Below are positions 9,967 through 34,339 of a stretch of DNA of 64,000 nucleotides, one piece after another. The position numbers and the translations under genes were made by a program. Source of the DNA: Escherichia coli (lineage in GTDB: Bacteria > Pseudomonadota > Gammaproteobacteria > Enterobacterales > Enterobacteriaceae); the NCBI RefSeq assembly GCF_003334305.1, contig NZ_QOWS01000016.1; one strand, given 5' to 3'. The stretch's first letter is position 1, and each line of letters opens with the position of its first letter. The notes under the pieces were generated by a model. The model was given only the letters and a program-made list of their open reading frames with translations. It was not told where the DNA came from and did not search any database.

Positions 9967-11824
9967 TGAACTTGATGCCGGTAATGTGCTGGCGGTTGAA
10001 AATCTGAATATTGCCTTTATGCAGGACCAGCAGAAAATAGCTGCGGTCCGCAATCTCTCTTTTAGTCTGCAACGCGGTGAGACGCTGGCAATTGTTGGCG
10101 AATCCGGCTCCGGTAAGTCAGTGACTGCGTTGGCATTGATGCGCCTGTTGGAACAGGCGGGCGGTTTAGTACAGTGCGATAAAATGCTGTTGCAGCGGCG
10201 CAGTCGCGAAGTGATTGAACTTAGCGAGCAGAGCGCTGCACAAATGCGCCATGTTCGCGGTGCGGATATGGCGATGATATTTCAGGAGCCGATGACATCG
10301 CTGAACCCGGTATTTACTGTGGGTGAACAGATTGCCGAATCAATTCGTCTGCATCAGAACGCCAGTCGTGAAGAAGCGATGGTCGAGGCGAAGCGGATGC
10401 TGGATCAGGTACGCATTCCTGAGGCACAAACCATTCTTTCACGTTATCCGCATCAACTCTCTGGCGGGATGCGCCAGCGAGTGATGATTGCGATGGCGCT
10501 GTCATGCCGCCCGGCGGTGCTGATTGCCGATGAGCCAACCACCGCGCTGGATGTCACTATTCAGGCGCAGATCCTGCAATTAATCAAAGTATTGCAAAAA
10601 GAGATGTCGATGGGCGTTATCTTTATCACTCACGATATGGGCGTGGTGGCAGAGATTGCCGATCGGGTACTGGTGATGTATCAGGGCGAGGCGGTGGAAA
10701 CGGGTACCGTCGAACAGATTTTTCATGCACCGCAACATCCTTACACCCGTGCGCTGTTAGCTGCTGTTCCGCAACTTGGTGCGATGAAAGGGTTAGATTA
10801 TCCCCGACGTTTCCCGTTGATATCGCTTGAACATCCAGCGAAACAGGCCCCCCCCATCGAGCAGAAAACGGTGGTGGATGGCGAACCTGTTTTACGAGTG
10901 CGTAATCTTGTCACCCGTTTCCCTTTGCGCAGCGGTTTGTTGAATCGCGTAACGCGGGAAGTGCATGCCGTTGAGAAAGTCAGTTTTGATCTCTGGCCTG
11001 GCGAAACGCTATCGCTGGTGGGCGAGTCTGGCAGCGGTAAATCCACTACCGGGCGGGCGTTGCTGCGCCTGGTCGAATCGCAGGGCGGCGAAATTATCTT
11101 TAACGGTCAGAGAATCGATACCTTGTCACCCGGCAAACTTCAGGCATTGCGCCGGGATATTCAGTTTATTTTTCAGGACCCTTACGCTTCGCTGGACCCA
11201 CGTCAGACCATCGGTGATTCGATTATCGAACCGCTGCGTGTACACGGTTTATTGCCAGGTAAAGAAGCGGCTGCACGCGTTGCGTGGTTGCTGGAGCGCG
11301 TGGGCCTGTTACCTGAACATGCCTGGCGTTACCCGCATGAGTTTTCCGGCGGTCAGCGCCAGCGCATCTGCATTGCTCGCGCGTTGGCATTGAATCCGAA
11401 AGTGATCATTGCCGACGAAGCCGTCTCGGCGCTGGATGTTTCTATTCGCGGGCAGATTATCAACTTGTTGCTCGATCTCCAGCGTGATTTCGGCATTGCG
11501 TATCTGTTTATCTCCCACGATATGGCCGTGGTAGAGCGGATTAGTCATCGTGTGGCGGTGATGTATCTCGGACAAATTGTTGAAATTGGTCCACGGCGCG
11601 CGGTCTTCGAAAACCCGCAGCATCCTTATACGCGTAAATTACTGGCGGCAGTTCCGGTCGCTGAACCGTCCCGACAACGACCGCAGCGTGTACTGCTGTC
11701 GGACGATCTTCCCAGCAATATTCATCTGCGTGGCGAAGAGGTGGCAGCCGTCTCGTTGCAATGCGTCGGGCCGGGGCATTACGTCGCACAACCACAATCA
11801 GAATACGCATTCATGCGTAGATAA
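9953..11824 (+). CDS. gsiA: Glutathione ABC importer, ATP-binding subunit (two ABC domains)
   Basis: Track ORF extends to 9845 inside iaaA; TTG at 9953 preceded by AGGGG gives 623 aa starting (M)PHSDELD. Two Walker A motifs (GESGSGKS twice). Confidence 0.85.
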
Positions 11825-21070: not shown

Positions 21071-21100
21071 AGGGGGAGAAAGCGTCTCCCCCTTCATGTT
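21071..21100 (+). terminator. Rho-independent terminator of bssR
   Basis: GGGGGAGA-aagcg-TCTCCCCC hairpin followed by T-rich tract. Confidence 0.55.
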
Positions 21101-21174
21101 TAAGTTTTTGTAAAAATGAATTTGTTATCTCCTCCACTGACTACGCTTTAAGCCAGAGTCAATCCGGAGGCGTT

Positions 21175-22290
21175 ATGCATCGACAATCCTTTTTCCTTGT
21201 GCCCCTTATTTGTCTTTCTTCCGCTCTCTGGGCGGCTCCTGCAACGGTAAATGTCGAAGTACTGCAAGACAAACTCGACCATCCCTGGGCACTGGCCTTT
21301 TTACCCGATAATCACGGTATGTTAATCACTCTGCGCGGCGGCGAGTTGCGTCACTGGCAAGCAGGAAAAGGATTATCTGCGCCGCTTTCCGGAGTTCCGG
21401 ACGTTTGGGCGCACGGGCAGGGCGGCCTGCTGGACGTGGTTTTAGCGCCTGATTTTGCTCAGTCTCGCCGCATCTGGTTAAGTTATTCCGAAGTTGGCGA
21501 TGATGGCAAAGCCGGAACTGCTGTGGGTTATGGCCGCTTAAGTGATGATCTCTCAAAAGTGGCCGACTTCCGCACCGTCTTCCGCCAGATGCCAAAACTG
21601 TCTACCGGCAACCATTTTGGCGGGCGGCTGGTATTCGACGGTAAAGGTTATCTTTTTATTGCTCTGGGCGAAAACAATCAGCGCCCGACGGCGCAGGATC
21701 TGGATAAATTACAGGGCAAACTGGTGCGTCTGACCGACCAGGGCGAAATCCCGGATGATAATCCTTTTATAAAGGAATCCGGTGCGCGCGCCGAGATCTG
21801 GTCTTATGGCATTCGTAATCCGCAAGGAATGGCGATGAATCCGTGGAGTAATGCACTGTGGCTGAATGAACATGGCCCGCGCGGTGGTGATGAAATTAAT
21901 ATCCCGCAAAAAGGCAAAAACTACGGCTGGCCGCTGGCAACCTGGGGAATCAACTATTCAGGCTTTAAGATACCGGAAGCGAAAGGGGAGATCGTCGCCG
22001 GGACCGAGCAACCTGTTTTTTACTGGAAAGATTCGCCCGCTGTGAGCGGCATGGCCTTCTATAACAGCGATAAATTCCCCCAGTGGCAGCAAAAATTATT
22101 TATAGGCGCGCTGAAAGATAAAGATGTCATTGTGATGAGCGTCAACGGCGACAAAGTGACAGAAGATGGCCGTATTTTAACGGACAGAGGGCAGCGAATT
22201 CGTGATGTTCGCACTGGACCCGACGGTTATTTATACGTTCTCACCGACGAGTCCAGTGGGGAATTACTTAAAGTTAGCCCACGCAATTAG
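21175..22290 (+). CDS. yliI: Soluble aldose sugar dehydrogenase (PQQ-dependent beta-propeller), periplasmic
   Basis: 371 aa with signal peptide; matches YliI. Confidence 0.9.
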
Positions 22291-22913
22291 CTAACGGGAA
22301 TCATCACCACTTTGCGCACTGCGGGGCGTTCAGTGAGTTGCTGATACCAGCGTTGCAGATTTGGACGCGGTGTCCAGGTCAGGCCAACGTTAAACAAATT
22401 GTAGATGAACGGTGCGATAGCGATATCGCCCACACCAAACTCGTCGCCAGAGAACCATTTTACTTTTGCCAGTTCCGCATCGAGCAGGGCAAACAGGGCG
22501 TCGCACTCTTTGCAACTGGCATCAATGGCGGCCTGATCGCGCTCTTCGGGTGGTGTTCTGACTAATCCCATCAGGATCCCGCGATGAGCATTACTGAGTG
22601 TCTGGTTTGCCCAGTCCATCCATTTTTCCGCTTCCGCACGACGTGCCGGTGAGTCGATCCACAGGCGTTTTTGCCCGTACTGTGCCGCCAGATAGCGGAC
22701 AATGGCGTTTGATTCCCAAAGAATGAGATCACTTTCGTCGTCACGCAACAACGGCACCAGCCCGTTAGGGTTCATCGCCAGAAAATCAGCATCGTGATTT
22801 ATCCCAAACTCACGGCCCGCGAGAATTTGCTCATAAGGTAGTTCCAGTTCTTCGAGCGTCAGCAATACTTTTTTTACGTTGGTTGAATTATTCCGACCCC
22901 ACAGCGTAATCAT
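22287..22913 (-). CDS. gstB: Glutathione S-transferase
   Basis: ATG 22913 gives 208 aa starting MITLWGR. Confidence 0.85.
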
Positions 22914-23159
22914 ACTCACCCCTTTTCCGACAGGCAGCCACAGACTGAACAGGACTCCGATGGTGAAGTAAAGTTAACTTTTAAGCAACAGCTGGCAAAA
23001 AAATGACACCAGAAGCAGCGAAGCGGCAGGATATTGCATAAACTTTAAAAACTTTACCAACTTACGGTTTCTTTAAGTTTGTGTGTGCGTTATTAATCAC
23101 CGAACTTATCATACGGCGATATAACGTATTTTTTTTGAATGGATACTCGGGTGGCATTT

Positions 23160-33345: not shown

Positions 33346-33633
33346 ATGCGCGCGATCGGTAAATTGCCTAAAAGCGTGTTGATACTGGAATTTATCGGAA
33401 TGATGTTGCTGGCGGTGGCGCTGCTGTCGGTAAGCGACTCCCTGTCGCTGCCTGAGCCATTTTCTCGGCCAGAAGTGCAGATTCTGATGATTTTTCTCGG
33501 TGTTTTGCTCATGCTTCCCGCTGCGGTGGTGGTTATTCTTCAGGTGGCAAAACGTCTTGCCCCACAGCTGATGAACCGTCCACCGCAATATTCACGTTCA
33601 GAAAGAGAAAAAGATAATGACGCCAACCATTGA
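33346..33633 (+). CDS. ybjC: Small membrane protein YbjC
   Basis: 95 aa, hydrophobic; overlaps nfsA start by 17 nt as in the ybjC-nfsA-rimK-ybjN operon. Confidence 0.7.
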   Translation: MRAIGKLPKSVLILEFIGMMLLAVALLSVSDSLSLPEPFSRPEVQILMIFLGVLLMLPAAVVVILQVAKRLAPQLMNRPPQYSRSEREKDNDANH

Positions 33634-34339
33634 ACTTATTTGTGGCCATCGCTCCATTCGCCATTTCACTGATGAACCCATTTCCGAAGCGCAGCGTGAG
33701 GCGATTATTAACAGCGCCCGTGCGACGTCCAGTTCCAGTTTTTTGCAGTGCAGTAGCATTATTCGCATTACCGACAAAGCGTTACGTGAAGAACTGGTGA
33801 CGCTGACCGGCGGGCAAAAACACGTAGCGCAAGCGGCGGAGTTCTGGGTGTTCTGTGCCGACTTTAACCGCCATTTACAGATCTGTCCGGATGCTCAGCT
33901 CGGCCTGGCGGAACAACTGTTGCTCGGTGTCGTTGATACGGCAATGATGGCGCAGAATGCATTAATCGCAGCGGAATCGCTGGGATTGGGCGGGGTATAT
34001 ATCGGCGGCCTGCGCAATAATATTGAAGCGGTGACGAAACTGCTTAAATTACCGCAGCATGTTCTGCCGCTGTTTAGGCTGTGCCTTGGCTGGCCAGCGG
34101 ATAATCCGGATCTTAAGCCGCGTTTACCGGCCTCCATTTTGGTGCATGAAAACAGCTATCAACCGCTGGATAAAGGCGCACTGGCTCAGTATGACGAGCA
34201 ACTGGCGGAATATTACCTCACCCGTGGCAGCAATAATCGCCGGGATACCTGGAGCGATCATATCCGCCGAACAATCATTAAAGAAAGCCGCCCATTTATT
34301 CTGGATTATTTGCACAAACAGGGTTGGGCGACGCGCTAA
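33617..34339 (+). CDS. nfsA: Oxygen-insensitive NADPH nitroreductase A
   Basis: 240 aa; matches NfsA. Confidence 0.9.
   Translation: MTPTIELICGHRSIRHFTDEPISEAQREAIINSARATSSSSFLQCSSIIRITDKALREELVTLTGGQKHVAQAAEFWVFCADFNRHLQICPDAQLGLAEQLLLGVVDTAMMAQNALIAAESLGLGGVYIGGLRNNIEAVTKLLKLPQHVLPLFRLCLGWPADNPDLKPRLPASILVHENSYQPLDKGALAQYDEQLAEYYLTRGSNNRRDTWSDHIRRTIIKESRPFILDYLHKQGWATR

Follow-up and report, generated by a model that had tools for sequence, protein, structure and literature searches.

yliI of Escherichia coli encodes a periplasmic PQQ-dependent aldose sugar dehydrogenase that relies on imported cofactor

One open reading frame within a 64,000-nucleotide stretch of E. coli DNA, called here the window, can be assigned with high confidence to yliI (asd), which encodes a periplasmic aldose sugar dehydrogenase that depends on pyrroloquinoline quinone (PQQ) and remains an apo-enzyme until PQQ from other bacteria is imported. 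We met no evidence that contradicts this explanation. The identity of the protein, its export class, its PQQ binding and activity, the absence of pqq genes, and the existence of an importer are each shown either by literature on this same protein or by the tests reported below. The paradox of a PQQ enzyme in a species that makes no PQQ is therefore real, yet it belongs to established knowledge and has already been explained: the structure was reported in 2006, PQQ dependence is likewise established, the lack of PQQ synthesis was demonstrated in 1997, and the importer was described between 2022 and 2025. The yliI gene in the window is one more wild-type allele, and nothing beyond that.

The yliI gene and its exported precursor

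The following features define the gene and its product.

21175..22290, + strand: yliI (asd), coding for the precursor of the PQQ-dependent soluble aldose sugar dehydrogenase; 371 codons and a stop
21166..21170, + strand: Shine-Dalgarno element GGAGG, 4 nucleotides 5' of the yliI ATG, read from the sequence
21175..21234, + strand: predicted Sec-type signal peptide, residues 1-20, with a predicted cut after Ala20 (alternatively Ala17), from the hydropathy profile
21235..22287, + strand: GSDH domain of the mature protein, a six-bladed beta-propeller spanning residues 21-371 (PF07995 at residues 34-366; PDB 2G8S at residues 21-370)

In the list of open reading frames for the window, the yliI frame begins with ATG, encodes 371 amino acids, and contains a single stop codon at its end, and its G+C content of 0.50-0.54 equals that of the flanking DNA. 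The encoded protein starts with a short, basic n-region that leads into a hydrophobic core, and small residues come ahead of the likely cleavage site, which is followed by APATV. The core reaches an 11-residue Kyte-Doolittle mean of 2.27 across residues 4-18. Furthermore, the alignment of the crystallized chain 2G8S to YliI begins at residue 21, and YliI has been placed among the SecB-dependent presecretory proteins (PMC4257090). We infer that the signal peptide is cleaved after Ala20. The original prediction of an intact gene with a signal peptide is thus borne out by the 371-codon frame, the GGAGG ribosome binding site, and the features of the n-, h- and c-regions.

Two further features frame the gene.

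21072..21090, + strand: predicted G+C-rich symmetrical hairpin GGGGGAGAAAGCGTCTCCCCC, from a consensus scan, just after the bssR stop (21064) in the 110-bp bssR-yliI spacer
22287..22919, - strand: gstB, the convergent neighbor, whose stop codon shares 4 bp (TTAG/CTAA, 22287-22290) with that of yliI

The putative hairpin scores as terminator-like on both strands in what is a consensus scan only, and a promoter scan upstream of yliI found no sigma-70 consensus promoter. PMC12288877 includes the overlapping genes yliI and gstB among its convergent 'excludons'. The chromosome of E. coli 602354, matched by 25 kb of the window at 99.74% identity, has the gene order gsiABCD-pdeI-dgcI-rimO-bssR-yliI-gstB-dacC-deoR. 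Two genes of that chromosome are annotated as disrupted, namely gsiA with a frameshift (segment 780-2650) and nfsA with an internal stop (segment 24443-25116), and the corresponding frames in the window (9845-11824 and 33617-34339, respectively) are uninterrupted.

Scans for Rfam families and tRNAs across the window revealed nothing related to yliI. Elsewhere in the window these scans returned a full-length RybB sRNA (RF00110; 30409-30487, - strand; 105 bits), which is the sigma-E-dependent sRNA expected at this E. coli locus, and an intergenic match to naRNA4/CssrE (RF02564; 43162-43242, + strand; 78.5 bits), a REP-derived nucleoid-associated RNA element.

YliI is a GSDH-family protein of known structure

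The original prediction described the product as a PQQ-dependent beta-propeller aldose dehydrogenase, and three lines of evidence sustain this identification. First, the encoded protein matches PDB entry 2G8S ('Glucose/sorbosone dehydrogenases'; E. coli aldose sugar dehydrogenase) at 348 of 350 residues (E 1.5e-243). This entry is the PQQ-bound structure of E. coli Asd/YliI (Southall et al. 2006, J Biol Chem 281:30650). Numbered on the precursor, the window protein departs from 2G8S by Thr130->Ala and Val204->Ala. The 7CDY homologue and natural E. coli alleles vary at these two positions too, and residue 130 is the sole difference between the window protein and that of the K-12 derivative BW25113. 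Second, YliI matches the Pfam GSDH model PF07995 over its full length (model positions 1-332 of 332, residues 34-366, E 3.8e-134). Third, many E. coli chromosomes carry DNA that is 100% identical and annotated as 'yliI: aldose sugar dehydrogenase YliI'.

A narrower family model gives a different result. NCBIfam TIGR03606 (non_repeat_PQQ, of the sGDH type) matches YliI only partially, across residues 23-254, with 109.3 bits against a cut-off of 434.55. Because its score falls below this cut-off, YliI is a sister of the GdhB-type sGDH proteins that lies outside their subfamily.

The PQQ and calcium sites are conserved

We aligned the Acinetobacter sGDH, the window YliI, and the Klebsiella orthologue with MAFFT, using an sGDH sequence identical to PDB 1C9U at all 454 positions. 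The designation of His144 as the sGDH catalytic base, together with the list of PQQ and Ca2+ ligands, is reported to be that of Oubrie et al. 1999. Three segments of yliI carry most of the equivalent residues.

21613..21615, + strand: codon for His147, in the motif GNHFGGRL, aligned with the sGDH catalytic base His144
21814..21879, + strand: residues 214-235, with the RNPQ motif and Gly234-Pro235, from the alignment with sGDH
22195..22203, + strand: Arg341-Ile-Arg343 in the motif RIRDV, aligned with sGDH Arg406 and Arg408 (PQQ carboxylates)

Within the second segment, Arg214, Asn215 and Gln217 align with the sGDH PQQ ligands Arg228, Asn229 and Gln231, and Gly234-Pro235 with the Ca2+ ligands Gly247 and Pro248. 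The remaining sGDH residues W346, K377 and Q76 correspond to W284, K314 and Q82 of YliI. YliI and the Klebsiella orthologue are identical to sGDH at all eleven of these positions (H144, R228, N229, Q231, G247, P248, W346, K377, R406, R408 and Q76 in sGDH numbering), and the only replaced site among the residues compared is sGDH Gln246, which is His233 in YliI. That sGDH and Asd have their PQQ-binding arginines in common has been reported previously (PMC6881789), which bears out part of the ligand list. In the active-site alignment with sGDH, the YliI sequence shows no sign of a change of cofactor.

E. coli genomes lack PQQ biosynthesis genes

Axenic E. coli cultures are reported to have contained no PQQ in a study from 1997. 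We searched for the corresponding genes with a pqqA-F locus that was located by using the K. pneumoniae PqqA peptide, which gave a 100% match to an annotated pqqA. No blastn match (word 11) to the Klebsiella pqqABCDE DNA occurs in 5,426 complete E. coli genomes, and a second, divergent query consisting of Acinetobacter plasmid pqqABCDE DNA likewise has no match in these genomes. As a positive control, the same sensitivity sufficed for the window yliI to retrieve the orthologue in the Klebsiella record that supplied the first query (69.6% identity, E 4e-113). This chromosome-wide search operates at the DNA level, such that a very divergent, horizontally acquired cluster would be missed. Within the 64-kb window, tblastn searches with the Klebsiella and Acinetobacter PqqA-F proteins yielded noise only (best E 0.05).

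At the protein level we turned to PLSDB. Besides thousands of plasmids from E. coli, this collection includes at least three complete chromosomes of the species that were entered as plasmids. A PqqC tblastn search of PLSDB matched only 217 records even at E <= 10, and no Escherichia appears among the ten commonest genera of these matches or among 60 evenly spaced rows. The whole chromosomes labeled as plasmids include three of E. coli (NZ_OL790696.1, NZ_CP141089.1 and NZ_CP134663.1, 4.8-4.9 Mb) and one of Klebsiella (CP125156.1, 5.37 Mb). Such mislabeled records are a handy protein-searchable E. coli set for our purpose, and they call for caution with plasmid statistics.

Two observations concern pqq genes in other hosts. 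In the Klebsiella record just mentioned, that of K. pneumoniae strain 176, pqqB and pqqE (segment 8127-9034 and 10081-11207) each match Acinetobacter PqqB or PqqE in two frames and are missing from the gene table, and these are either frameshifted pseudogenes or sequencing errors. Separately, the 17.5-kb Acinetobacter variabilis plasmid pXM9F202-2-17k from chicken feces bears a full pqqABCDE set together with a dipeptidase gene (2035-6352 of the segment). The occurrence of these genes on a plasmid from a gut sample indicates that bacteria living in the same habitats as E. coli can carry PQQ biosynthesis on plasmids.

It is conceivable in principle that an unrecognized pathway provides E. coli with PQQ of its own making, or with a PQQ-like quinone, and that YliI is therefore independent of other organisms. 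All that speaks for this idea is that the maintenance of two quinoprotein apo-enzymes seems odd a priori, and we give it almost no credence given that the DNA-level search met no pqqABCDE-like sequence in the 5,426 genomes and that the window contains no pqq homologue. Moreover, E. coli mutants deficient in the PTS grow on glucose only when PQQ is added, with 1 nM being enough when uptake proceeds via PqqU (bioRxiv 10.1101/2022.06.07.495086). Published accounts also deny PQQ synthesis by E. coli: both Gcd and Asd/YliI are stated to require PQQ, which E. coli is unable to make (Hantke & Friz, bioRxiv 10.1101/2022.06.07.495086), and the source given there for this inability is Matsushita et al. 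1997. The original prediction had assumed the same inability and had pointed to a complete pqq locus as a discovery that would overturn it. That locus, looked for at the DNA level, is absent from all 5,426 complete E. coli genomes, and the assumption agrees with both this result and the literature.

PQQ is supplied from outside the cell

The importer gene pqqU, which is located outside the 64-kb window, is present in 5,414 of the 5,426 complete E. coli genomes. Given that yliI is found in 5,425 of the same genomes and that pqq genes are absent, the enzyme and the importer both belong to the core genome whereas the biosynthetic pathway is missing. PqqU (YncD) is an outer-membrane transporter that depends on TonB-ExbBD, and at roughly 30-fold higher PQQ concentrations uptake becomes independent of it (bioRxiv 10.1101/2022.06.07.495086). 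Import of PQQ by E. coli thus involves both PqqU/YncD and porins (bioRxiv 10.1101/2022.06.07.495086; PMC12124388). Munder et al. obtained the structure of PqqU in complex with PQQ, found PqqU in 22 phyla with PQQ biosynthesis in only 23% of PqqU-encoding genomes, and described PQQ as a 'common good' that E. coli exploits (PMC12124388).

Biochemical evidence comes from a 2026 chemical proteomics study, in which YliI was purified free of cofactor and its glucose dehydrogenase activity was restored by adding PQQ (PMC13088180). Of the two alternatives that the original prediction left side by side, reliance on an exogenous cofactor therefore proves to be the correct one, as judged from the published import by PqqU and porins and from the reconstitution of YliI with PQQ. 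With Gcd and YliI, E. coli maintains a pair of apo-quinoproteins, and PQQ serves it much like a vitamin obtained from its community. This scavenging is relevant to cross-feeding in microbiomes and to engineering, and YliI is already in use as a biocatalyst and photoenzyme.

The following sequence of events is proposed. The YliI precursor is exported by the Sec pathway with assistance from SecB, its signal peptide of about 20 residues would be removed, and the mature propeller resides in the periplasm as an apo-enzyme. Since E. coli lacks pqqA-E, YliI becomes active only once PQQ of other bacteria reaches the periplasm, with nanomolar PQQ entering through PqqU (YncD) and higher levels through porins. 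PQQ and Ca2+ are then bound in the exposed active site. By analogy with sGDH, His147 is expected to serve as a general base that takes the C1-hydroxyl proton of the aldose, hydride would be transferred to C5 of PQQ, and the aldonolactone would leave. The resulting PQQH2 would be re-oxidized by an electron acceptor, for which periplasmic cytochrome b562 (CybC) is a candidate, again by analogy with Acinetobacter sGDH.

yliI is nearly universal and under purifying selection

The gene occurs at a median of one copy per genome, and only one of the 5,426 complete E. coli genomes has no yliI match. Comparison of the window allele with five others, sampled down to 98.0% identity, gives dN/dS values of 0.07-0.15, and the pooled pN/pS over all allele pairs is 0.066. 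These values indicate strong purifying selection on yliI. Furthermore, an orthologue with 73.5% amino acid identity (WXJ00944.1, 'PQQ-dependent sugar dehydrogenase') is present in Klebsiella pneumoniae in the same context, rimO-bssR-yliI-gstB-dacC-deoR, and yliI is thus an old, vertically inherited enterobacterial gene.

An exceptional allele is found in strain ET210 (NZ_CP100987.1, segment 1501-2418), where 198 bp flanked by short GCTGG repeats, equivalent to window positions 21429-21626, are deleted in frame, with the loss of residues 85-150, including His147. The product is annotated as an intact 306-amino-acid 'PQQ-dependent sugar dehydrogenase', and from its sequence it is probably inactive.

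These data bear on whether yliI might be a useless relic of a PQQ-producing ancestor that is drifting toward a pseudogene. Such a history would fit the presence of pqq genes and a syntenic yliI in Klebsiella alongside the lack of pqq genes in E. coli, the typically low abundance of YliI (PMC13088180), the ET210 deletion, and the one genome without a match. However, yliI is full-length and intact in essentially all 5,426 genomes, all of its active-site residues are conserved, and a dedicated high-affinity PQQ importer is conserved along with it. We regard decay of this kind as extremely improbable and reject it on the strength of the pooled pN/pS and the near-universal presence of the gene.

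A yliI-gstB segment with 100% identity also resides on a few E. coli records labeled as plasmids, among them the 55-kb NZ_CP148400.1 and NZ_CP148585.1, with five plasmid placements in the E. coli genome collection. These could be captured chromosomal segments or artifacts of assembly or labeling.

The physiological substrate of YliI

Broad-specificity oxidation of aldoses by YliI is documented by a crystal structure and assays in Southall et al. 2006 (cited in bioRxiv 10.1101/2022.06.07.495086, PMC6881789 and PMC6791322), and the enzyme has been employed for the preparative oxidation of xylose (PMC6791322). The published glucose assay, however, used 1.25 M glucose (PMC13088180), and this condition together with the low abundance of the protein raises the possibility that aldose oxidation may not be the physiological reaction. 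E. coli is known to have two PQQ enzymes, Gcd and YliI (PMC13088180).

We therefore considered whether the true job of YliI is something other than aldose catabolism, wherein a PQQ-dependent or PQQ-binding periplasmic enzyme acts on another substrate, possibly in connection with envelope stress. Beyond the assay condition, three observations point in this direction. First, expression of yliI rises 6- to 11-fold when the lipoprotein transport system LolCDE is inhibited (PMC5105897). Second, yliI groups with the CpxR iModulon. Third, in E. coli as in Klebsiella its neighbor is bssR, the gene of a biofilm regulator. Against this stand the structural and biochemical evidence for aldose oxidation in the 2006 report, the preparative activity on xylose, and the fact that no alternative substrate has been proposed. 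We consider a non-aldose role unlikely, albeit a good deal less so than the relic and self-synthesis scenarios, and it would refine our preferred explanation more than contradict it. In its most specific form, which we consider similarly unlikely, YliI might carry out an envelope-stress-linked periplasmic oxidation of a substrate outside sugar catabolism that is switched on only when neighboring microbes provide PQQ. The assignment of YliI as a PQQ-dependent aldose sugar dehydrogenase awaiting imported cofactor remains our preferred explanation.

Comparison with known systems

The closest known system is the E. coli Asd/YliI protein represented by 2G8S, which is the same protein, encoded at the same locus and with the same neighbors as yliI in the window. 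The K. pneumoniae locus displays the same synteny as that of E. coli, but its host genome, unlike that of E. coli, also has pqqABCDEF, and therefore the Klebsiella YliI can be supplied with cofactor from within the cell.

The sGDH (GdhB) of Acinetobacter calcoaceticus (1C9U, 1CQ1) belongs to the same six-bladed GSDH fold family as YliI (E 4e-22). Both enzymes are periplasmic, and they share the catalytic histidine as well as the ligands of PQQ and Ca2+. In contrast to YliI, sGDH is about 100 residues longer and carries long loop insertions, and Acinetobacter species have pqq genes whereas E. coli does not.

Finally, Gcd (mGDH) is the other E. coli apo-quinoprotein that, like YliI, relies on scavenged PQQ. 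Its gene lies outside the window and, unlike YliI, it is an unrelated, membrane-anchored propeller of eight blades that couples to ubiquinone (bioRxiv 10.1101/2022.06.07.495086; PMC6881789).
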